From a virus: 64,000 nt of DNA. Each line of letters begins with the position of its first letter. The stretch's first letter is position 1. Location of the stretch: the IMG/VR virus record IMGVR_UViG_3300025860_000003, positions 1 through 64,000 of that record; one strand, 5' to 3'. A program made the translations under genes and the position numbers. Positions 1,429-54,512 of the stretch are shown here, one piece after another. Below the pieces are notes generated by a model. That model searched no databases and had not been told where the DNA came from. It was given only the letters and a program-made list of their open reading frames with translations.

Positions 1429-1457
1429 AATCTTAATCTCACTCAATTTGAACAACA

Positions 1458-3930: not shown

Positions 3931-4006
<76 letters not shown>

Positions 4007-6374: not shown

Positions 6375-7574
6375 CTACGATGCGTATGCATCATCCCACG
6401 TTCCTGTAAGACCAGCAACTTCATATTCTGTCACACGGTTCTCAAAGAAGTTCGTGTGGTCTGCACCATTCAATACCCACTCCAACCATGGGAGCGGATT
6501 CTCTTTTACTCTGAAGTTTGTTCGTAAACCTAACTGAAGCAATCTTCTGTCTGTTATATAGCGGATATACTGTTTTACTTCTGCAGCGTCTAAGCCTTCA
6601 ACCTCGCCCATCTTGTAAGCCAGATCAATAAACTTATCTTCTAGCTTCACAGCTTGTCGTGCTATCTCATATATATCTTTCTTAAAATCTTCGTCTACGA
6701 TACGTGGATGCTCAGCGCAGAATGCTTTGAATAGCTTAGAGTTACCCTCAACGTGAATCGACTCATCACGGATAGACCATTCTACAACCTTGCCCATGCC
6801 TTTCATCTTACCATAACGCTGGAAGTTTAGTAGCATTACAAACGATGCAAATAACGCAACACCCTCGTTGAACACAGACTTAGCAAGCGACAATCCGAGA
6901 CCACGCATAGTAGTAACATCATTCTCGGTCATAAAGTCGATCTTATCAGCCATCTCTGAATACTCAAGAAAGGCATGATACTCGCTGTCAGGCAGACCAA
7001 GTGTTTCGTTCAGTAGAGCATATGCTCTTTGGTGGATACCCTCACGAGCAGCAAACGATCCAAGCATATTACGCACTTCATTGTTCTTAAATTTAGGAAC
7101 AAAGTTATCGTAGTAATTCTGACCAACCGCAACGTCTGACTGAGTAAACAAGCGCAGTACATTGGTGATGTAATCTTTCTCTACCTGTGTAACCTTACCC
7201 ATCTTCCAATCAGTAACGTCTTCAGAGAGATCAATCTCGTCTTCGATCCAGTGAGCCTTTTCGTGACGTGTAGTAATATCTACAGCCCAAGGATAATGGA
7301 ATGGTTTGTACGTTTCAGAGAACTCAAGCAGACCGCCAGCTTTCTTAACTAGCGTGTCAGCAATCTTCATAAGATCGTCATATGTTCCAATGTGTTTATC
7401 ATCAATAAAGATCTGCGGTACAGATCGTGCGTTCGGCAGTTTCTGGTAGAACGCCAAACGTTGTTCTTGATCATCTAGCTTGACCTCACGGACAACATAT
7501 CCATGAGTCTCAAACCAATACTTTGCCTTTACACAAAATGGGCAATTACTTTTACTGTAAATTAATACGTCCAA
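6375..7574 (-). CDS. nrdB: ribonucleotide reductase class Ia beta subunit with N-terminal glutaredoxin domain
   Basis: CPFC, SVPQIFI glutaredoxin (about residues 1-80) fused to di-iron REGIH...Y and DESIH motifs; TTG start with GGAGAG RBS. Confidence 0.95.
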   Translation of the reverse strand: MDVLIYSKSNCPFCVKAKYWFETHGYVVREVKLDDQEQRLAFYQKLPNARSVPQIFIDDKHIGTYDDLMKIADTLVKKAGGLLEFSETYKPFHYPWAVDITTRHEKAHWIEDEIDLSEDVTDWKMGKVTQVEKDYITNVLRLFTQSDVAVGQNYYDNFVPKFKNNEVRNMLGSFAAREGIHQRAYALLNETLGLPDSEYHAFLEYSEMADKIDFMTENDVTTMRGLGLSLAKSVFNEGVALFASFVMLLNFQRYGKMKGMGKVVEWSIRDESIHVEGNSKLFKAFCAEHPRIVDEDFKKDIYEIARQAVKLEDKFIDLAYKMGEVEGLDAAEVKQYIRYITDRRLLQLGLRTNFRVKENPLPWLEWVLNGADHTNFFENRVTEYEVAGLTGTWDDAYAS

Positions 7575-20548: not shown

Positions 20549-22687
20549 TTAGTTATCAACTTTTTCGCCAGCACGCCACTGGTAACATGACCAATACCCA
20601 GCTGTTGTTTTGTCTTTTTTGTTTTCGCAATCGTGTCTTGATCTGAATGCTGCTCTTCGCTTTGGATCGTCTCGTTTGATTTCCATATTTGGATCACCAA
20701 ACGTAACCTTAATCACATTGCCTTTGTCATTCTTAACATACACGCCAAATTTCTTTTTCGATCCTGATGGTAGTCTGAAAGGATTATTTAAATCAACCTT
20801 TCTTCCTTTATACTCAGCAGCTTCAACCACTAAATCTTCATACATGCCAGCGCAATCTTCTTGACACGGAGTGTCTTTTTTATACTTCTTGGTCAATGCA
20901 TCAGTACCAAACTCACCAGCAGCTTCTTTAAGGTCTGTATACATATTCGCAAGAACACGTGGGTTAACACCACTATATTGTCGCGCCACAACACCAGCAT
21001 AATAAACAACACCGTGCCTCATGGGGTCTTTACCAGCTTCTTTCTTCTTGCGGTCTACAACCTGCTTCAGAACACTCAATGCGGCTTGATACTTATTCTT
21101 TGAGATAGTCTTAGACTTCAGCTTGGCAATTAGTTCTCCAGTAGGAACCTCATCCAACATCTCAACAGACTCGCTCACATTACCCTTGTGTTGTTTCCAC
21201 AAGTCAGCATCGCCAGTAGTTCTTGTCTTACCGCCAGTAATGAAAGAGTTTACACGAGCATATGCCCATTGCTGTTGGTTTGCTCCTGGACGATGTCCAG
21301 TCTTCCAAGCAGCCATGCCACGATTGTAAACTTTCTTCAGGATACCAAGAGATATGCCAGACTTGTCTGACTTCTTCTTCAGCGCAGTGGCTGAGTCTTC
21401 GGTGATCTCAAAAGATTCTTCTTGGTTCTTAGCTTTAGTGTCTGAAGTGCGAGCGCGATCCATCATACGATCATGCTTCTTCTTATCAACAGCCTTTTCT
21501 CTGTCTATCTTAGCCTTAGCCGCATCAACTTCACCTTCACCAAACATATCACGATACTTCTTAGTGTGTTTGGAGAGTTTAGTCTCAGCGCCAGTATCGC
21601 CAGCATGCTTATCTGGATATGCTGTCGGGTCGTCTGAATCTTTCTCAGCGCCTTTCTTGAATTCTGCGTCACGCTTTGCTTTGGTAGACTTAGATAAACC
21701 GCTATGGTATTTCTTTGGCTGTGTTCCTTCGCGATCTTTGATGTCTTTGTCTTGAGCAACAGCTTCAAACAACGCATCATAATCTAACTCTTCCTTGACA
21801 CCGCCACGAGCTTTCTTCAATCTTTCGATCTCAGCTTTACGGATTTTAGGTAATAGCTTCTTGGCAATTTTAGGAATGAGTGATGACTTCTTCTGTACTA
21901 GCTTATCAACTTGAATCTTATCTGTGGGAGATAGGTTAGCATAGTTCTTACCGCGATCACCCGCAACTTTCTTACGGATAACAGCAATAGCAGCCTTGTT
22001 GGCACGCTTCTTAATCACATCTGTGTTAGCCATCTTCTTGGCTTTGATCTTCTTAAGACGCTGCATCTTTGGAGCAAGACGCTTCATTCTACGACCAATA
22101 GCTTTACGCTGAGAGATACTTAATGGCTTTCTATCTTCGTCCATGTCTTCTGTAAGTACAGAGCGGATAGTGTCATAGATATCTTTAGCATCACGATCAC
22201 TTAATTTCTTTGCCAGACCAGACTTGAATGTATCGAAGTCGCCCTCAACTGCAATTGCTCTTAGCTTAGATGCAGACATTCCTTCAACGCCAGTTGCGTC
22301 AGGATCACGTGCGCCAGCAGAGACTACTTTGATTGAGTCGAAGTCATAGTTCTTACCATTATACTTCTGGAGCAGACCATTGAATTCGGTAACTCGATCA
22401 GATCCAACAACCATGATGACTTCATCAAACTCTTTATCCAATTCAGCCATTATCTGGAAGATTGTCTTAGACTTTGATTGGAATGCTGTTTTACCGAATG
22501 CTTTGCGGGCGAAACTAATCTTCTCAGCATAGTTGAGAGGATCTTTCTTATTATTCTGGGTGTGTGAAAGATAAATCCTTGCGGGCGCTTTTTCTTTCTT
22601 AGCAATCGCCTCAACTTTGTCGACCAGCTTTTGGTGACCGATAGTTGGTGGATTCATACGACCAAACGTAAATACTACTTTTGACAT
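20549..22687 (-). CDS. cytidyltransferase-like (HxGH) nucleotidyltransferase with multiple C-terminal modules
   Basis: VFTFGRMNPPTIGHQKL, VVGSDR, GMSASKLR; later modules such as GHRPGANQQQWAYARVNSF. Confidence 0.85.
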   Translation of the reverse strand: MSKVVFTFGRMNPPTIGHQKLVDKVEAIAKKEKAPARIYLSHTQNNKKDPLNYAEKISFARKAFGKTAFQSKSKTIFQIMAELDKEFDEVIMVVGSDRVTEFNGLLQKYNGKNYDFDSIKVVSAGARDPDATGVEGMSASKLRAIAVEGDFDTFKSGLAKKLSDRDAKDIYDTIRSVLTEDMDEDRKPLSISQRKAIGRRMKRLAPKMQRLKKIKAKKMANTDVIKKRANKAAIAVIRKKVAGDRGKNYANLSPTDKIQVDKLVQKKSSLIPKIAKKLLPKIRKAEIERLKKARGGVKEELDYDALFEAVAQDKDIKDREGTQPKKYHSGLSKSTKAKRDAEFKKGAEKDSDDPTAYPDKHAGDTGAETKLSKHTKKYRDMFGEGEVDAAKAKIDREKAVDKKKHDRMMDRARTSDTKAKNQEESFEITEDSATALKKKSDKSGISLGILKKVYNRGMAAWKTGHRPGANQQQWAYARVNSFITGGKTRTTGDADLWKQHKGNVSESVEMLDEVPTGELIAKLKSKTISKNKYQAALSVLKQVVDRKKKEAGKDPMRHGVVYYAGVVARQYSGVNPRVLANMYTDLKEAAGEFGTDALTKKYKKDTPCQEDCAGMYEDLVVEAAEYKGRKVDLNNPFRLPSGSKKKFGVYVKNDKGNVIKVTFGDPNMEIKRDDPKRRAAFRSRHDCENKKDKTTAGYWSCYQWRAGEKVDN

Positions 22688-22726
22688 GTACGTGTTTCCC
22701 TTGGGCTTAACGTGTTAAATTAGTGG

Positions 22727-22754
22727 TTGACTTATCTCTTCATTGATGTATAAT
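22727..22754 (+). promoter_or_regulatory. antisense-oriented sigma70-type promoter
   Basis: TTGACT-16 nt-TATAAT on plus, preceded by AAATTAGTGG like the phage early promoters. Confidence 0.5.
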
Positions 22755-22775
22755 AGAGATGTCGCTTTGTAAGTG

Positions 22776-22783
22776 TATTTATA
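22776..22783 (-). promoter_or_regulatory. T4-type late promoter
   Basis: TATAAATA in the intergenic region upstream of the nucleotidyltransferase. Confidence 0.75.
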
Positions 22784-22788
22784 ATATC

Positions 22789-24015
22789 TTACTTTTGCCA
22801 TCCTTTGATGAATTCAGGAGAGAAGTTAGCTTGACTGAACTGCATCCGATCTACGAGCTTCAATGCACTACCATCTGTATCAATAGCAACATATCCCTCT
22901 GGAGCAGTAACCTGAAACCCATCCTTTGTTCTTAGTAGGGTTGTGATGTTACTTGCCTGATCCATCTTACGAATGATCATTTCTTTCGCATCAATCAAAA
23001 GGTTCATCATTGTAAAGATATTCTCTAGGTGACGAACATTAGCATTAGAAAAGAACTTCAAGACATCATCTCTTTTCTCTATCTGTGTAGCCTTACCTTT
23101 CTCAGACTTTCGTTTACCAGCCTCTTTATCATAGAAAGCAACAATGTAATTGACCAAACCTTTCACATGAGACTTAACGTTGGTGATCTTCTGTCCATCG
23201 CGAACTTTAGTGTTAAAGTGTGTCTTAACTTTCTGTAACAATAAGGCATCATCCGAGATACCATTAAGAGTCTTGGCGTCTAACTTACTGAACAGCTTAC
23301 CTGCTTCAGACAACAGCTTAGTAATTTGTTTTGTTTCTTTATCAGTAAATGTAGCAGAGCCAGATACATCAGTGAACATAGCATCAACAGACCAAACGTT
23401 CTTGCTCTTGCGTAGCTTAGAGGCAATCTCTTTACCGAACGATGCCTTCATTGTTTCAAACGATGTTCCAGTATATATAGTATGCCACACAATACCGATT
23501 TTAGCTTGGCGAATAGTATTGCCGAGAGGTGACTTGCTTGGTACAGAGTATACAATAGTGTTAGGATGGAATGTTGTAACCTTTTCTCCGTCATACACTT
23601 CAGACTTCAGGTCAGACTTACTGAATAGAAAGTCTCCTTGAATAACACCAGTGATTCCTAGCTCTGGAAGATACTTCAATGCGTCTTTCAGTTTTGTTGC
23701 CAGCTCACCGCTAGTGTCAGCGTCTACCTCTTCAGCGGTCTTATAGACTTTAGGGTTCTTATTAAAGATACCTTTCTTAGCCACAAAGAACTCGCCGTCA
23801 CGCGGATCTTGTCCAGCAAAAATAGCAGGAGCGCCGTCCCACTTAACAGTAGTAGAAACGCCACGGCTAGAATTACCCGAGAGCATATCACGCATACTTC
23901 TAAGAAGATTGATAGCTTGTCGTGTACCATTTACCCCTCCATTCAACACGGCATCTTCTAGATGTTCCATGTGTGTATTTTTATCTTCAATTAGGAATGA
24001 ATTAAATTTTTTCAT
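22789..24015 (-). CDS. DUF6267-like protein, ligase-type nucleotidyltransferase fold
   Basis: KNTHMEHLED, VKWDGAPA (KxDG), QGDFL, PEGYVA, KLVDR; N-terminus MKKFNSFLIE. Confidence 0.75.
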   Translation of the reverse strand: MKKFNSFLIEDKNTHMEHLEDAVLNGGVNGTRQAINLLRSMRDMLSGNSSRGVSTTVKWDGAPAIFAGQDPRDGEFFVAKKGIFNKNPKVYKTAEEVDADTSGELATKLKDALKYLPELGITGVIQGDFLFSKSDLKSEVYDGEKVTTFHPNTIVYSVPSKSPLGNTIRQAKIGIVWHTIYTGTSFETMKASFGKEIASKLRKSKNVWSVDAMFTDVSGSATFTDKETKQITKLLSEAGKLFSKLDAKTLNGISDDALLLQKVKTHFNTKVRDGQKITNVKSHVKGLVNYIVAFYDKEAGKRKSEKGKATQIEKRDDVLKFFSNANVRHLENIFTMMNLLIDAKEMIIRKMDQASNITTLLRTKDGFQVTAPEGYVAIDTDGSALKLVDRMQFSQANFSPEFIKGWQK

Positions 24016-24313
24016 TATAGTGCTCATCGTGCCATCGTTGGGCTTCTTTCTTAGCAGTTCCTACATTTCTATATGCAGTGACTGGGTGACGAGGCTTATC
24101 GCCTCCTACTTTGGTGTTATCGAACAATGTGGGCATTACTTTCTGGCTACCATCTTTGTTCTTTTTCATAGAATCCATACCAGATAAACGGATCTCATAC
24201 TTACCGTCTGAGGAAACGTGCTTGAACACTTTCTTATTGCCAGCACCATATCCATCTGGAACTTTCTTCCATTTGATATTAGCTGACTCATTAAACTGCA
24301 TAAAAGATTTCAT
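24002..24313 (-). CDS. small basic putative internal head protein
   Basis: N-terminus MKSFMQFNES resembles the T4 internal protein capsid targeting sequence. Confidence 0.6.
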   Translation of the reverse strand: MKSFMQFNESANIKWKKVPDGYGAGNKKVFKHVSSDGKYEIRLSGMDSMKKNKDGSQKVMPTLFDNTKVGGDKPRHPVTAYRNVGTAKKEAQRWHDEHYNEKI

Positions 24314-24316
24314 CTA

Positions 24317-25648
24317 TTAATAAACCTTACAATGTATTGATGAGAAGTCGTTTTTCTTTATAGCCGAGTAATAACAACTCTTCAGTATATCTGGATCGCT
24401 TTCTGCTAGGATCTCGAGATAGTATGTTAACCAAGCACCAGCCTTCAATTGCACTTCAGATGTCGGGAAAGGGGAAACCTTATCAATTACAAATGACTTC
24501 TTCAATAGTTTAGGTAACGTTGTATTTAGGTATTTCATCGGATTGTTCATAATCTTAGTCTTATCAGCTTTAAGGTCAAACCCATTCTTAGAAGCAAGCT
24601 CAGGGAATAGTTGCGCAGATACAGAACCCAATTGAACATCAGCACCCTTTTGTCTACCCTCAAGATACACACGGATATCTCCGACCTTAGAGATTGTACC
24701 TGCTTTATATCCAACACGCAACTGGAAGTTGCTTATATTACCTTGCGTTTCGAAGATAAAGTTCTTCTGGAATGGGTCGAACAAGACACGCATTGGTGTC
24801 AAGTCTACATCAGGTATGTCAGATGTTGATACAGTTTCCACTTTAGCAGTTTTGTTCTTAGAGATCTTCTTGAGTGATACACCGAGGATTTCTTTACTCT
24901 CAAACTTATCAGCAAGCCAAGCATTGAATTCATGTAGTGATGTAACGTCTTTGGTCTGCTTAATTACCTGCGCTTTGTTGATTGACATAATCCAGATGTC
25001 AGCAGGGTTCCAGTTATCTTTTAAGTCTTTTAAACCAAATCGTTTCGCTAGATTAAATAATACATTAGAATCATTCTTTTCAGAGTCTAAGTATATCTTG
25101 TGTTTAGGGAAGTTGCCGAAGTTCTTGGAGAATGCGATGTACTGTTGCTCGAAGTTATGCATCCACTCTGGACTGAAATCAAATCCAACCTTTTCAGACA
25201 CCTGCTTCAGTGTCAGCTTCTTACCTTTAAATGCGGTCTCAAAATAAGCAATCGTTCCTGCCTCTTGCTCAGCAGTTGATGGGTTAGCTACTTTCTCACC
25301 TTTCTTGGGGAGACGACCACTGCCACGCATACCACCAGATGGAACAAGAGCGATATTAACGAGCTTAGAGGAAACAAACTTTTCACCCTTTTTAATAAAC
25401 CCATAACCAACCAAGTCTTTGTTCACAGCAAGTTTAGGGATAAGCTGCTTGTCTGTAACCTTGATGACGAGCTGTGTGCTCGCTTTCTTGAAGTCATACT
25501 TTGGTTCAATGTAGATAACATCGTCGTCAGCATGTTTCTTAAGACGAGTAATGAATCTCTTCAGCTCAGGGTTCATTGCTGTTGGTAGGTGCTCAAACCC
25601 TAACCAAAGTTTGGTTGATTCGATAAGGTATTCGTTAAACTTGTGCAT
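24317..25648 (-). CDS. putative PD-(D/E)xK-like nuclease
   Basis: TAEQE, WNPADIW, GVSLKK motifs; N-terminus MHKFNEYLIE. Confidence 0.55.
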   Translation of the reverse strand: MHKFNEYLIESTKLWLGFEHLPTAMNPELKRFITRLKKHADDDVIYIEPKYDFKKASTQLVIKVTDKQLIPKLAVNKDLVGYGFIKKGEKFVSSKLVNIALVPSGGMRGSGRLPKKGEKVANPSTAEQEAGTIAYFETAFKGKKLTLKQVSEKVGFDFSPEWMHNFEQQYIAFSKNFGNFPKHKIYLDSEKNDSNVLFNLAKRFGLKDLKDNWNPADIWIMSINKAQVIKQTKDVTSLHEFNAWLADKFESKEILGVSLKKISKNKTAKVETVSTSDIPDVDLTPMRVLFDPFQKNFIFETQGNISNFQLRVGYKAGTISKVGDIRVYLEGRQKGADVQLGSVSAQLFPELASKNGFDLKADKTKIMNNPMKYLNTTLPKLLKKSFVIDKVSPFPTSEVQLKAGAWLTYYLEILAESDPDILKSCYYSAIKKNDFSSIHCKVY

Positions 25649-25687
25649 AGCCAGCCTTTAATGGATACAATAATGGATATTATAACC

Positions 25688-25695
25688 TATTTATA
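25688..25695 (-). promoter_or_regulatory. T4-type late promoter
   Basis: TATAAATA about 40 nt upstream of ATG 25648. Confidence 0.8.
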
Positions 25696-25710
25696 ATCCA
25701 AAGGCAATGT

Positions 25711-25738
25711 AAAAATGAGCATTTTAATGACATGCTCA
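25711..25738 (-). terminator. intrinsic terminator after gp41
   Basis: UGAGCAU-9 nt-AUGCUCA followed by UUUUU. Confidence 0.65.
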
Positions 25739-25743
25739 GGTCA

Positions 25744-25794
25744 TGGTGATGTGCGCGAGTGAGAGTGAGAGAGAGAGTCTCCCGCACATCACCA
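25744..25794 (-). ncRNA. candidate small RNA hairpin with CU-rich loop
   Basis: 12-bp perfect stem UGGUGAUGUGCG/CGCACAUCACCA enclosing GGAGACUCUCUCUCUCACUCUCACUCG. Confidence 0.55.
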
Positions 25795-25795
25795 A

Positions 25796-27223
25796 TTACA
25801 TATTAAATCCACTGAAGTTCTTACGACCCATCTTCTTAGTCGCCCACTTCATTTGGTCATCTTCTTTCATACGCTCACCATAACCCGAATTGTCAAATAC
25901 TGGACCAGTATCAGTAACGTCTTCTTGCGCTGTCTGTTCGACATCATACAACCGCATCTTAGCTCGATCAATACCAACCATGAACCTCTTATTGGTACTC
26001 GGATCACCATAACGATTCTTCAACTGCTTGATCATTATCTGATTCATCTCGTCAAGCTCTTCAGTCACAATCAATGCCGCCATGAAGTCAGCTGTAGCAG
26101 GTAGACCAAACGATTCAGATGTATCGGTCAGCTCAATGTCGCTGCTGCCATAACCGCTTCGTGTTACCTGTGTAGCAGATACAATCGGCACGTTCTGTTC
26201 TACAGCCAACCCACGCAGCTCTTCGGCAATAGCCTTGATCAATGTATATGAATTGACATTAGACCCAGCTTTCATCCTTGAAGATGAACAGATATTCAGA
26301 TAATCAATATAGATGATGTCAGGAATAAATGACTTCTTCAGCTTCATCTCATTCAGTAGGTGACGGAAGTGACCAACACCACCCGATGCAGTAGGATATT
26401 CTTTAATGATTAACTTGCCTGCCGTCTTACCTTTAACACGCTCGATCTTCTTCTTGTACATATCCTTAGACAAGGACTTGAGATTATCGAGTGTAACATT
26501 GAGTAGATTCGCATCAATACGTTCTGCGATCTTTTCCTCAGCCATCTCCATAGTGATGTACAAAACGTTCTTGCCGTCCATAAGGTTAGCCGCACCCATG
26601 TGACACATAGCCAAAGACTTACCAGCGCCAGTACCAGCCATCAATATATTCAAAGACTTGCGAGGCAAACCGCCCCCAGTAATCTTGTTCATATACTCTA
26701 GATCAAAAGGAACACGTTCTTCCTTACGATGATAGAAATCAAACCGCTCATCAGCATCTTCAACAAAGTCATGACCGATGTTAGGATCAAACGAAACACT
26801 CAGAGCCTCGGACAACAACTCAGGTATAGCGCCCTTATCACGAACATCTTTACCAGTCCCGTCTTCATCGAGTATATTGATAGACTCCATGATAGCATTG
26901 TAGACTGCTTTCTCTTGACAAAACTTCTCGGTTGTCGCAATAAGCCAGTCTGAATCTTCAGCTTGTTCAACAGAGAGTGATGAAACTAACTCACCACACT
27001 CTGCGAACTCGCTGTCTGAAAGATTGTTCTTTGTATCAAGCTCAATCACCAATGCTTCTTTGGTGGGAAGCGAATTGTATTTATTAATAAAATTATCAAT
27101 TTGCTCATATACCGTTTTCTCAACACGGCTGGCAAAATACTCGGGCTTTAGATAGGGGAGTGTTCTCCTAGCATATATTTCATCATTCAGCAGATGTCTC
27201 AGTATCAGTGTTTCCGTCGCCAT
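25796..27223 (-). CDS. replicative DNA helicase (T4 gp41-like)
   Basis: AGTGAGKS Walker A, YITMEM, IYIDYL, SATQ, KQLKNRY. Confidence 0.95.
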   Translation of the reverse strand: MATETLILRHLLNDEIYARRTLPYLKPEYFASRVEKTVYEQIDNFINKYNSLPTKEALVIELDTKNNLSDSEFAECGELVSSLSVEQAEDSDWLIATTEKFCQEKAVYNAIMESINILDEDGTGKDVRDKGAIPELLSEALSVSFDPNIGHDFVEDADERFDFYHRKEERVPFDLEYMNKITGGGLPRKSLNILMAGTGAGKSLAMCHMGAANLMDGKNVLYITMEMAEEKIAERIDANLLNVTLDNLKSLSKDMYKKKIERVKGKTAGKLIIKEYPTASGGVGHFRHLLNEMKLKKSFIPDIIYIDYLNICSSSRMKAGSNVNSYTLIKAIAEELRGLAVEQNVPIVSATQVTRSGYGSSDIELTDTSESFGLPATADFMAALIVTEELDEMNQIMIKQLKNRYGDPSTNKRFMVGIDRAKMRLYDVEQTAQEDVTDTGPVFDNSGYGERMKEDDQMKWATKKMGRKNFSGFNM

Positions 27224-27494
27224 TCTCTATCTCTCTCAATTGCGTTTCGATAATATCTATTAGTATATCACCCATTATACCAACAACCGACTCAGAAGTC
27301 AAGTCATTTTCTTTGGGGTTTTCAATAGAAATAGTTTGGAAGTCTAACACACCTTGTCCATCTACTTCATTGAATTGGACAGTATCATACTGGTAGGTGA
27401 GTCCCTCACACTCACCCTCCAATATCTGGATAGCCCAATGATCTGAGTGATATCCTTCACCCTCGCTTTCGACTAACTTATAATTAACTGCCAT
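27183..27494 (-). CDS. gp40-like acidic protein, paralog 1
   Basis: located between uvsX and gene 41 like T4 gene 40; ILEGECEGLTYQYD. Confidence 0.55.
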   Translation of the reverse strand: MAVNYKLVESEGEGYHSDHWAIQILEGECEGLTYQYDTVQFNEVDGQGVLDFQTISIENPKENDLTSESVVGIMGDILIDIIETQLREIENGDGNTDTETSAE

Positions 27495-27774
27495 TGTCGA
27501 CCTCCTTATTCATCTCTTTCAATTTAGTCTCGATAATATCTACAAGAATATCGCCCAATATTTCTTCATTCGACTCGCTGTAGAGGTCAAGTTCCAACAC
27601 GTCACCATCGACTTCTTCACCTGTCACGTCTAAGATGTTGAAGTCAAGACAGACCTCGGCTCCATCTTCATTAATCTTGACCGAATCATACTGGTAGGTG
27701 AGTCCTTCTAACTCACCCTCCAGAATTTCTACCGCAAACTGATCTGATTCGAGTAACTTATACTTAACCGTCAT
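27484..27774 (-). CDS. gp40-like acidic protein, paralog 2
   Basis: ILEGELEGLTYQYD...ILGDILVDIIE, clearly homologous to its neighbour. Confidence 0.55.
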   Translation of the reverse strand: MTVKYKLLESDQFAVEILEGELEGLTYQYDSVKINEDGAEVCLDFNILDVTGEEVDGDVLELDLYSESNEEILGDILVDIIETKLKEMNKEVDNGS

Positions 27775-33108: not shown

Positions 33109-33109
33109 C

Positions 33110-33700
33110 TCACTCTCCGATTATCATATAGTAAATATCACGCCAGTTCTTGGCTCTTGTTCCATTATACTCTTTATTGTACCTGTGGTCAATCAAAATA
33201 CTCTTTAACCCAAACCGATCACCTAACTCAGCATTGGCAGGCTTATCTTCGATCCACCAACACTCGGAGTCTCTATATTGTAACAACGCTTCATCCTTAT
33301 CAGCACCACAATCAAGGCAGGTCAATAATTCAAAGACACCTTTACCGAATACCGCATCAAGATTTCTCTGTCTCAGCGCAATGGCTTTCACATCATCCGA
33401 CATAGAAGTGATACAGTGGAATACATAACCATGTTCTTCATGTAACTTGCGAACATACTTAACTGCGTCTCTGAGGGGCGGGATGTCTTCCATCCAAGCA
33501 CTCTCATTGAAGTGTCTGACCATCGGCTTAGACTCAGCACGTGTCAGCATGTATCGCTCATTGACATTATAGATATCTCTATATCCGTCTACAGGCTCAT
33601 ATCCTTTTGAATCCATCCACTTACTGAAAGCATACTCCCAGTCAAGCAGAACACCATCACAGTCAGTTAAAATGACCTTATCGTTAGTAGCGTACATCAC
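33110..33700 (-). CDS. HAD-superfamily phosphatase (T4 30.2 / 5'-nucleotidase-like)
   Basis: LTDCDGVLLDW, ITS, WIEDK motifs. Confidence 0.85.
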   Translation of the reverse strand: MMYATNDKVILTDCDGVLLDWEYAFSKWMDSKGYEPVDGYRDIYNVNERYMLTRAESKPMVRHFNESAWMEDIPPLRDAVKYVRKLHEEHGYVFHCITSMSDDVKAIALRQRNLDAVFGKGVFELLTCLDCGADKDEALLQYRDSECWWIEDKPANAELGDRFGLKSILIDHRYNKEYNGTRAKNWRDIYYMIIGE

Positions 33701-36066: not shown

Positions 36067-36098
36067 AATATAGGTCTCTCTCAATCAATTCAAATACA

Positions 36099-36132: not shown

Positions 36133-36357
36133 TTATACCATACTGGCTTCAGCCTTATATGCCATCTCAAGGACGCGCATGTTTTCATTATAGATATTCA
36201 CCAGCTCAGAGTGGGTGTATATCTCATAACCGCTGAAGAGGATCTCTTTACCAACACTAGGAACTTCAGTATCAGCAAACGGCTTCAGCGTCAAGGCATC
36301 AACCTCAAAACCCAACAACTCAGCCAATTCAGCGGTAGTCTTAATCTCAATACTCAT
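36133..36357 (-). CDS. early hypothetical protein
   Basis: AGGAG RBS, own promoter. Confidence 0.7.
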   Translation of the reverse strand: MSIEIKTTAELAELLGFEVDALTLKPFADTEVPSVGKEILFSGYEIYTHSELVNIYNENMRVLEMAYKAEASMV

Positions 36358-40467: not shown

Positions 40468-40501
40468 AATATATTCTCTCAATTCATTAATTTATAAGGG
40501 A

Positions 40502-40979: not shown

Positions 40980-41007
40980 ATTTTCTCTCTCATCAATTTA
41001 GGAAGCC

Positions 41008-42016: not shown

Positions 42017-42415
42017 TTAGAATTTCTTGCCGATGTTATACTTAGTTTCCAATGCCCACTCGTCTTTCTCTTTATATGGAAGGACTTTAATTTGGTTTAA
42101 TGGGGCAATTGGCTCTTTGCTCTTCTCCGCATCCACTAACTTAATCAAACCCCATTCAGCTAGTAAATTTGCGATTGTATTACGTCTGCCGACATCTTCA
42201 ATGCCAAAGTTACTTGGCTTACCGTCTAATGCAAATAGTTCTTTAAAGTGGACAATGTAATACTTACCTTGCTTATGCAAGATATGGCATGATTGATACA
42301 GTGTTTTGTTTTTGTGTGAAGCCACGCCAATGCGTGTGAGTGTTTCGCGGATCTTCAGAAAATCGTCATCATCCTTTAATACTACTTCCACCAGACTATC
42401 CAGCATGTTTCCCAC
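42017..42415 (-). CDS. regA: translational repressor
   Basis: FLKIRETLTRIG, LYQSCHILHKQGKYYIVHFKELF. Confidence 0.95.
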   Translation of the reverse strand: MGNMLDSLVEVVLKDDDDFLKIRETLTRIGVASHKNKTLYQSCHILHKQGKYYIVHFKELFALDGKPSNFGIEDVGRRNTIANLLAEWGLIKLVDAEKSKEPIAPLNQIKVLPYKEKDEWALETKYNIGKKF

Positions 42416-52124: not shown

Positions 52125-52157
52125 ATAGGTCTCTCTCATTCATTCATTTAAGTAGCC

Positions 52158-54483: not shown

Positions 54484-54512
54484 ATATTGGTCTCTCATCA
54501 AATTAGACGCCC

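Follow-up and report, generated by a model that had tools for sequence, protein, structure and literature searches.

A covarying hairpin with a conserved CU-repeat loop in T4-like phages, a candidate antisense RNA of GA-rich early leaders

Introduction

Behind the gp41-like replicative helicase gene of a T4-like phage stands a perfect stem whose CU-repeat loop is complementary to the GA-rich translation leaders of several genes of the same phage, which raises the question of whether this hairpin, here called stem-loop 1 (SL1), works as an RNA and what it might act upon. The sequence analysed, referred to as the window, is 64,000 nucleotides long and forms the first 64 kb of the 133,055-bp IMG/VR virus record IMGVR_UViG_3300025860_000003 (G000), which is estimated to be 74% complete. 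Every gene of the window lies on the − strand, on which all coordinates of the element are given. An initial annotation of the window had interpreted SL1, together with a second stem-loop (SL2) and U tract behind it, as a phage RNA that shuts off a class of early messages, an interpretation that is partly supported by the comparisons reported here. We put at about even the chance that the element is a base-pairing RNA directed at ribosome-binding sites, which would act in trans and, for gp41, possibly within its own mRNA.

Results

Two stem-loops follow the helicase gene

The stop codon of gp41 occupies positions 25798-25796 and is followed by SL1, with a 5′ arm UGGUGAUGUGCG (25794-25783), the loop GGAGACUCUCUCUCUCACUCUCACUCG and a 3′ arm CGCACAUCACCA (25755-25744). 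A spacer reading UGACC leads to SL2, which consists of UGAGCAU (25738-25732), a 9-nt loop (25731-25723) and AUGCUCA (25722-25716) and is followed by U5 (25715-25711). The arrangement that the initial annotation had reported after the gp41 stop, a perfect 12-bp stem with its loop and then a hairpin and U tract, is thus borne out by the sequence, and the region 25700-25800 folds at −35.2 kcal/mol compared with −17.97 ± 3.07 kcal/mol in 200 dinucleotide shuffles, none of which folds as well (z −5.61). In the minimum-free-energy fold the loop is unpaired apart from three weak pairs. A pseudoknot between CUCA of the loop and a downstream UGAG was considered and rejected, since it would be only 4 bp long and is absent from L113 and L118.

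SL2 resembles an intrinsic terminator in having a 7-bp stem, a 9-nt loop and U5, and went unlisted by the scan tool, whose loop limit is 8 nt; SL1 of the window fails the definition of an intrinsic terminator, with its 27-nt loop and no U tract. A reading of AUGCUCA as a MotA box was rejected because its spacing to any −10 element is wrong. The next gene, which starts at 25648 and encodes a 443-amino-acid protein without a known family, is preceded by a sigma-70-like promoter (Table 1), the spacer of which contains a late-promoter-like TATAAATA (25695-25688) that is invariant in relatives. For the helicase gene itself, the nearest named BLAST relatives are cyanophage genes for 'DNA primase-helicase', at about 70% nucleotide identity.

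The suggestion that the second hairpin may belong to a known Rfam motif found no support: the scan of the window against Rfam 15 at the gathering score gave one tRNA only, and for 25640-25830 at E ≤ 10 nothing scored better than mir-550, whose 18 bits fall short of an 81-bit cut-off, and no match was below E 0.2. The window has a tRNA gene at 3934-4006 (−).

The stem covaries around an almost invariant loop

Among the 80 best IMG/VR relatives of gp41, which were collected for comparison, the three closest homologues (98, 83 and 83% identity) have the hairpin at the equivalent position, and it was not seen in the 12 more distant gp41 loci read from this set. At L003 and L004 the stems are wholly different from that of the window, yet the CU loops have CUCUCACUCUC in common. 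A loop-blind search with the downstream gene returned 26 loci, and SL1, SL2 and TATAAATA are present in all 25 that include the upstream region; a pattern search combining the loop core with GACCUGAG returned 22 loci, comprising 19 members and three unrelated low-complexity matches (L089, L090 and L099), which were excluded. In the tally of the search tables, 29 contigs besides the window's record carry the element. Among the gp41-type members there are 21 different sequences, in which no fewer than 11 unrelated stems surround a loop that hardly changes, and a covariance model derived from the window type recovers 20 of the 21 members searched at E ≤ 0.01, L084 reaching only E 0.62.

Covariation was measured on a model-fitted alignment (A4, 20 relatives), the fitting of which leans the result towards the model: compensatory changes are found there in all ten core pairs of SL1, 95.7% of the cells are paired, and the covariation score is 0.559, compared with 0.204 ± 0.019 in shuffles, none of 500 of which reaches this score, and no more than 0.138 with slid partners. 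The core pairs of SL2 never vary and show no covariation; SL2 is conserved as sequence, with GACCUGAG.A.GUC...AAA.UGCU invariant in the alignment, and this motif is single-copy in G000. Two MAFFT alignments (A1 and A5) lose the register of the stem and were used only for the conservation of the loop and of SL2. L086 was left out where its N bases interfered, as were L176, L232, L268 and L323 as uncertain members. The number of CU units varies among near-identical relatives, being 4, 7 and 10 in L114-L116 and 5 versus 6 in the window and L083, while the loop core CUCUCA..CUCUC is invariant across 22 hairpins from the four contexts described below. Judged from these alignments, SL1 is more than a chance structure, namely a conserved element whose stem covaries in relatives, and the comparison of gp41 3′ regions that the initial annotation had proposed came out in its favour.

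Among contigs from RNA libraries, a 1390-nt contig (run X3) differs from the window at 25742-25795 by 13 substitutions and 11 gap letters, and the differences listed for this run all fall at 25742-25807 except those at 25481 and 25496; the pattern reflects either a stem swapped between near-identical strains or a chimeric assembly. The RNA-library contigs break at the hairpin because variants coexist.

The same loop is found in three further contexts

A search of IMG/VR with the loop core gave at least 121 matches. Among the 80 loci listed, 65 are without a hairpin, and L171, L180, L186, L206, L214, L222, L225 and L227 carry the loop on long G+C-rich stems with no SL2. A 19-mer search returned 22 loci, 18 of which make up a second family (family 2), the other four (L273, L277, L287 and L292) being excluded as unrelated low-complexity matches. 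The phages of family 2 are T4-like and their gp41 is 57-58% identical to that of the window. Their gene order runs from a DUF3310-like gene through a small hairpin, the CU-loop stem, a U-rich run, TATAAATA and (A)GAGAGAGA to GGAGAGAA-AUG, and the stems, 11-17 bp long and of six types, surround the loop CCUCUCUC(UC)ACUCUCUCUCAA(U). In the complete 165.6-kb record G011 of this family the hairpin is 10 kb away from gp41.

In family 2 (L274-L294; e.g. L280 at ~2540-2600, −) the CU-loop hairpin stands only ~10-15 nt upstream of TATAAATA and (A)GAGAGAGA, and the Shine-Dalgarno sequence of the next gene is GGAGAGAA; since the hairpin is so close upstream, read-through RNAs could fold the loop against the GA tract. 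T4-type masking of a late ribosome-binding site was rejected for the window family, in which the leader of the next gene, AAAGGCUGGCU-AUG, has no GA run; family 2 differs in this respect, with a GA tract directly after TATAAATA.

The third context is a 10-bp stem in the contig of L005, the gp41 of which is 73% identical to that of the window and is not followed by a hairpin. The fourth is the cultured OM43 phage Melnitz (MZ577097.1), in which the loop variant ACCUCUCUCUCGACUUUCUCUCUCA sits on a 15-bp stem; by consensus matches, a promoter-like TTGACT-17-TATGAT ends 7 nt before this stem, which is followed by a terminator hairpin bearing a U8 tract. The Melnitz hairpin region folds with z −6.83 and is identical in four Melnitz GenBank records. 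An annotated 59-codon 'hypothetical protein', MelnitzEXVC044M_66 (L321:2348-2527; MZ577097.1 38547-38726), spans the CU-loop hairpin, the terminator and the next promoter, and is probably a gene-caller artefact, mis-annotated in the four records. The main text of the Melnitz paper (PMC9004378), the part of that article on which we draw, makes no mention of sRNA, small RNA, non-coding RNA or hairpin. Against Rfam 15, the Melnitz, family 2 and G016 loci gave tRNAs only, and L322, L323, L274 and L222 gave nothing below E 0.47. In the G016 contig, four tRNA genes (L308:157-474, −) lie ~2.1 kb from its CU-loop hairpin.

Hairpin scans found one such hairpin per genome in G000, in the complete G011 and in Melnitz, and all four contexts have the CU tract on the strand of the genes. 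Bacterial genomes contain 12 matches to the 19-mer loop core, approximately the number expected by chance, and none of them lies in a strict hairpin. In L323, a metagenome-assembled genome of Planctomyces sp., the 19-mer CUCUCUCACUCUCUCUCAA occupies the loop of an imperfect 15-bp hairpin, and in L322 and L327 (Caenispirillum salinarum) it is single-stranded, directly before a strong terminator; on the sequence around them, these planctomycete and Caenispirillum settings are small-RNA-like contexts in bacteria.

Since the stem covaries around a fixed loop, in four contexts, in single copy and in the sense orientation, and since Melnitz frames the hairpin with a promoter and a terminator, the function would appear to reside in the loop of an RNA. 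In two families the element is found where a gene ends, with a TATAAATA late-type promoter downstream, a position that might also suit termination and 3′-end protection alone, in which SL1 (with SL2) blocks read-through into the late-promoter gene and shields the gp41 mRNA from 3′ exonucleases, the loop being a CT microsatellite. The U tract directly after SL1 in family 2, the differing CT unit number of near-identical relatives and a likeness to the composite terminator-promoter PeSL elements of T4-like phages (PMC4122927) speak for this explanation. We nevertheless regard it as improbable, since loops as long as these (19-29 nt) make for a weaker terminator, and yet it is the loop that is conserved and the stem that is free. 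The interrupted core CUCUCACUCUC is moreover kept across lineages with gp41 only 57% identical, where a neutral microsatellite would decay, and Melnitz has its promoter-like site immediately upstream and lacks a credible gene whose transcript the hairpin could end or shield.

In many members the loop comes close to a mirror repeat (ACTCTCTCTCACTCTCTCTCA), a symmetry that favours intramolecular triplexes. An inverted repeat at such a homopyrimidine-homopurine tract could act at the level of DNA, as a cruciform, a triplex or a recombination or replication signal between modules; the hairpin region holds most of the differences between near-identical RNA-library contigs, and it is positioned at module boundaries. 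We consider a DNA element of this kind very improbable. The constant placement of the CU tract on the gene strand argues against it, as do the promoter and terminator of Melnitz, which suit an RNA gene, and the L114 clade, in which mirror symmetry is lacking. G-U appositions in the stem correspond to A-C mismatches on the other strand, and they outnumber A-C appositions by 28 to 3 in a lenient count, which we rejected because it is biased by the stem finder, and by 8 to 3 in an even-handed count, which is not significant (p 0.23).

GA-rich leaders mark genes behind early promoters

Most genes carry AGGAG or UAGGA leaders, which implies that the host reads canonical Shine-Dalgarno sites and that GAGAGAGA represents a distinct class. 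On the sense strand of G000, GAGAGAGA has six sites, all of them just before start codons. Ten genes (starts at 1428, 27223 (gp41), 36066, 40467, 40979, 52124, 54483, 123321, 127485 and 127897, the last three outside the window) have a common cassette made up of a sigma-70-like promoter, a stretch of ~16 nt with (A)AUUGAU at its end, the tract GAGAGAGA, a gap of 4-8 nt and AUG. GA leaders precede 10 of 24 promoter-proximal genes as against 8 of 142 others (odds ratio 12, Fisher p 1.3e-5), so the early-promoter leaders to which the loop had been described as complementary do form a real class. Its products include a MoxR/CbbQ-type AAA ATPase and a PD-(D/E)XK nuclease, and Melnitz has two identical early cassettes with UGAGAGAGG. 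As far as sequence goes, the GA leader class is the only partner visible for the loop, and it includes the leader of the hairpin-bearing mRNA.

The initial annotation had assigned GA leaders to seven starts and was right for six of them (36066, 40467, 40979, 52124, 54483 and 1428); the seventh, 7574, has AGGAGAGAGA with a canonical AGGAG, and the GA leader of gp41 itself, UGAGAGAGA, had been missed. The open reading frame at 6375-7574 (−) is of NrdB size and apparently fused to a glutaredoxin-like N-terminus (..CPFC..), with an apparent UUG start behind UAGGAGAGAGAA.

The early promoters at 36357, 52124 and 54483 and at G000 127485 have in common an upstream block, aaaatagTTGTTGACTT, that extends beyond the −35 element and suggests, from its sequence, copied PeSL-like cassettes. 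Several of these early promoters also have a late-like box, TATAAAT(T), between the −10 element and the GA tract.

Table 1. Positions of the element, its flanking signals and the candidate GA leaders in the window
Feature	Position	Strand	Basis or remark
gp41-like replicative helicase gene	25796..27223	−	Pfam DnaB_C, E 1.4e-18; element at its 3′ end
SL1, perfect 12-bp stem around 27-nt loop	25744..25794	−	sequence, fold
CU-repeat loop GGAGACUCUCUCUCUCACUCUCACUCG, 27 nt, proposed seed	25756..25782 (read 25782-25756)	−	sequence
Conserved spacer (U)GACC, SL2 and U5 tract, terminator-like	25711..25743	−	sequence, fold
Sigma-70-like promoter TTGCCT, 17-nt spacer, TATAAT	25679..25707	−	10/12 matches; drives next gene, ATG 25648
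Sigma-70-like promoter before gp41, TTGACT, 17-nt spacer, TATAAT, with TG	27274..27302	−	11/12 matches
gp41 own leader UGAGAGAGA, 6 nt before ATG	27230..27238	−	perfect 9-nt complement of loop
Early-promoter cassette leader UGAGAGAGA, gene start 36066	36075..36083	−	
Early-promoter cassette leader UGAGAGAGA, gene start 40979	40984..40992	−	
Early-promoter cassette leader GAGAGAAU, 24-codon open reading frame, start 40467	40473..40480	−	
Early-promoter cassette leader UGAGAGAGA, MoxR/CbbQ-type AAA gene, start 52124	52130..52138	−	
Early-promoter cassette leader GAGAGACC, 737-amino-acid gene, start 54483	54489..54496	−	
Early-promoter cassette leader GAGUGAGA, start 1428	1437..1444	−	fits CAC-containing part of loop
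Leader GAGAGUGAG directly before ATG 33108	33109..33117	−	9-nt complement of the loop's CUCACUCUC; no promoter nearby

Leader and loop are complementary within and beyond the gp41 mRNA

The CUCUCUCA units of the loop exactly complement UGAGAGAG. In each of 15 distinct pairs the gp41 leader is a perfect 9-16 nt complement of the loop at the 3′ end of the same gene, irrespective of whether the leader falls inside an upstream open reading frame or in the promoter region (L145/L146). The GA leader and the CU hairpin occur together in 3 of the 78 gp41 loci that could be assessed and are both missing from the other 75, so that neither is found without the other. Upstream of gp41 in the window are two paralogous small genes (27183-27494 and 27484-27774, −), both phrog_3998, encoding 103 and 96 amino acids; the first shares 40 nt with the start of gp41, and in its reading frame the GA leader spells ..(L/M)-R-E-(I/M)...

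This same-mRNA complementarity, the persistence of the GA leader in coding sequence and promoter region alike and its strict co-occurrence with the hairpin at gp41 would be explained by pairing in cis only, whereby the 3′ end of the gp41 mRNA masks its own GA leader and autoregulates the helicase, the other GA leaders being irrelevant. The icaR mRNA provides a precedent (PMC3868564). A purely cis mechanism is not general, because the hairpin-bearing gene of family 2 has a GAGG leader with no GA run and Melnitz has no host gene at all, and we think it quite unlikely as the whole explanation. A trans-acting RNA is favoured instead, since Melnitz, a cultured relative, has a promoter-hairpin-terminator unit.

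Perfect complements of the loop of at least 8 nt occur in 8 of 166 leaders of G000, and of at least 9 nt in 6 of 166, whereas mononucleotide-shuffled loops give means of 1.24 and 0.28, respectively, and reach the observed counts in 0/1000 cases. Of the 17 stretches of G011 that show complementarity over 9 nt or more, 6-7 serve as leaders behind early promoters, and one of these leaders, GAGAGUGAGAG, fits the CAC interruption of the loop.

Several observations weigh against a pairing RNA. The target enrichment that the initial annotation had anticipated stands against mononucleotide shuffles and fails both against dinucleotide-preserving shuffles, which reach the observed count in 557/1000 cases so that the enrichment of perfect matches is gone, and for duplex energies, for which RNAduplex places 22 of 166 leaders at or below −14 kcal/mol compared with a mean of 17.9 and a maximum of 41 for shuffled CU-rich loops; the enrichment signal is just a CU repeat meeting a GA repeat. 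The cassettes are paralogous copies and therefore not independent events, the co-occurrence of leader and hairpin at gp41 represents a single clade, and GAGAGAGA may simply be a weak Shine-Dalgarno variant. Matches between leader and loop are no longer in own pairs than in cross pairs, except in the L145/L146 clade, where a pure (UC)n loop is paired with a (GA)6.5 leader, and across the gp41 leader and loop pairs the length of (GA)n does not track that of (UC)n. Cassettes of promoter and GA leader are dense in G000 alone, at 8.3 per 100 kb; G011 (3.0) and Melnitz (1.4) do not stand out from six other T4-like contigs without a detected hairpin (2.0 overall), these hairpin negatives being weak because the known Melnitz hairpin was also missed; GAGAGAG..ATG is absent from 16 of 21 CU-negative contigs, which are only 9-25% fragments. 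The even-handed strand count given above belongs with these points. The promoter scan found no promoter for SL1 of the window itself between the gp41 body and SL1, the sole promoter-like site inside the 3′ end of gp41 being TTGATC-17-TATGAT at 25971-25943 (9/12 matches), 140 nt upstream. Finally, the RNA-library evidence consists of contigs from four metatranscriptome runs of one study, with possible DNA content, and these carry no information on ends, strand or level.

Seed and target show no clear covariation, and the linkage between hairpin and GA cassettes is weak at the genome level, as might be expected if the loop were a protein decoy or binding site that titrates or recruits a binder of single-stranded pyrimidines (e.g. 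S1, a cold-shock protein or a KH-domain protein), with an incidental GA match. Such a role would also accommodate a loop conserved far beyond the needs of short-repeat pairing, including its A interruptions and CAA end, on a hairpin that is single-copy and portable and displays the loop on a stem. We judge a decoy unlikely, because no candidate protein is common to the four contexts, the flanking genes of which differ, and because the A residues ending the CU runs fit the U before the GA run in 9 of 10 cassettes (by eye), as pairing predicts. The leader variants GAGAGAGG, GAGAGAGUG and UUGAGAGAG each fit another register of the loop, which also speaks for pairing. Of the possible alternatives, we would place the decoy first, then the terminator or stabiliser and then the DNA element.

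Discussion

In the anti-ribosome-binding-site reading that we favour, SL1 would be the working part of a small regulatory RNA that, in the window phage, would constitute the 3′-terminal part of the gp41 mRNA and stop at SL2 and its U tract. The stable stem, which is free in sequence, would display the conserved loop of CUCUCUCA-type units, and these units would pair with the (U)GAGAGAG(A/G/U) leader tract of genes behind sigma-70-type early promoters, gp41 included. As the RNA accumulates, pairing would most likely lower translation of the GA-leader messages, because it would cover the landing site of the 30S subunit. We infer a discrete RNA species, its pairing in vivo, the sign of its effect and the balance between action in trans and on its own mRNA; repression, the direction that the initial annotation had given to an early-to-middle switch, would follow from the same inference.

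A bolder proposal, which we offer tentatively, is that the element is a master riboregulator common to several abundant marine T4-like phage lineages. With the tandem CUCUCUCA units of its loop, this one RNA would bind the UGAGAGAG leaders throughout the class of early-promoter cassettes and time their translation, as an RNA counterpart of the protein-based shut-off by RegB and RegA. Phages of OM43 hosts are among these lineages, and phages of SAR11-type hosts probably are too, judging by their relatives. A variant in which two mirror-symmetric CU tracts clamp the GA strand as a pyrimidine-purine-pyrimidine triple helix, or bind the GA/CT duplex abutting the late promoters of family 2, seems to us a long shot.

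T4 silences early messages at their ribosome-binding sites with proteins, RegB and RegA; the outcome proposed here is the same, and the effector would be an RNA. RegA had been expected to act alongside the element, and a homologue of this translational repressor is indeed encoded at 42029-42394 (−; PF01818, E 1.7e-45). Pyrimidine-rich loops serve as seeds against purine repeats or Shine-Dalgarno regions in RepG of Helicobacter pylori and in RNAs of the RsaE/RoxS type, which are bacterial genes without sequence relation to the CU-loop element. The c4 antisense RNA of phages P1 and P7 is cut from the same transcript that carries its targets. Loop-displayed complements attach c4 to the ribosome-binding region of a phage message and thereby prevent its translation, as a recent review of phage small RNAs sets out in its main text (PMC12197685). 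The proposed element would likewise be phage-encoded and display in a loop a complement to ribosome-binding regions; c4 acts on one operon (ant) of a temperate phage through unique sequences, whereas the element has a CU repeat, dispersed candidate early leaders and lytic T4-like phages as its setting, and is predicted. Neither 'T4 phage' nor 'phage T4' appears in the main text of that review, in which no trans-acting regulatory RNA is listed for lytic phages of the T4 type.

In the icaR mRNA of Staphylococcus aureus, a pyrimidine anti-Shine-Dalgarno motif in the 3′ untranslated region pairs with the ribosome-binding region of the same message and blocks initiation (PMC3868564). The gp41 mRNA has the icaR layout in all 15 variants. 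The icaR motif, UCCCCUG, lies in a long 3′ untranslated region and concerns a single gene, whereas the phage loop also occurs apart from any GA-led gene. The PeSL cassettes of T4-like phages combine a repeated stem-loop with a sigma-70-like promoter, a Shine-Dalgarno sequence and a start codon (PMC4122927). This layout fits the succession of SL2, the promoter at 25707-25679 and the ATG at 25648, and the GA cassettes have promoter, leader and start in common with it. PeSLs are multi-copy and have been proposed as drivers of recombination (PMC4122927), whereas SL1 has a single copy, of which the loop is the conserved part.

If the favoured reading is true, a large group of ocean phages would shut off early genes partly by means of RNA. 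Stem and CU loop against GA leader would then constitute a compact, portable module that can be tested with reporters, and Melnitz with its OM43 host, a cultured pair with a stand-alone copy, makes the question accessible to direct experiment.

Downstream of the element, at 20549-24027 (−), genes led by late promoters stand amid the block of replication genes, and they include a DUF6267 protein of 412 amino acids and a 712-amino-acid protein with cytidyltransferase-like PHROG hits.

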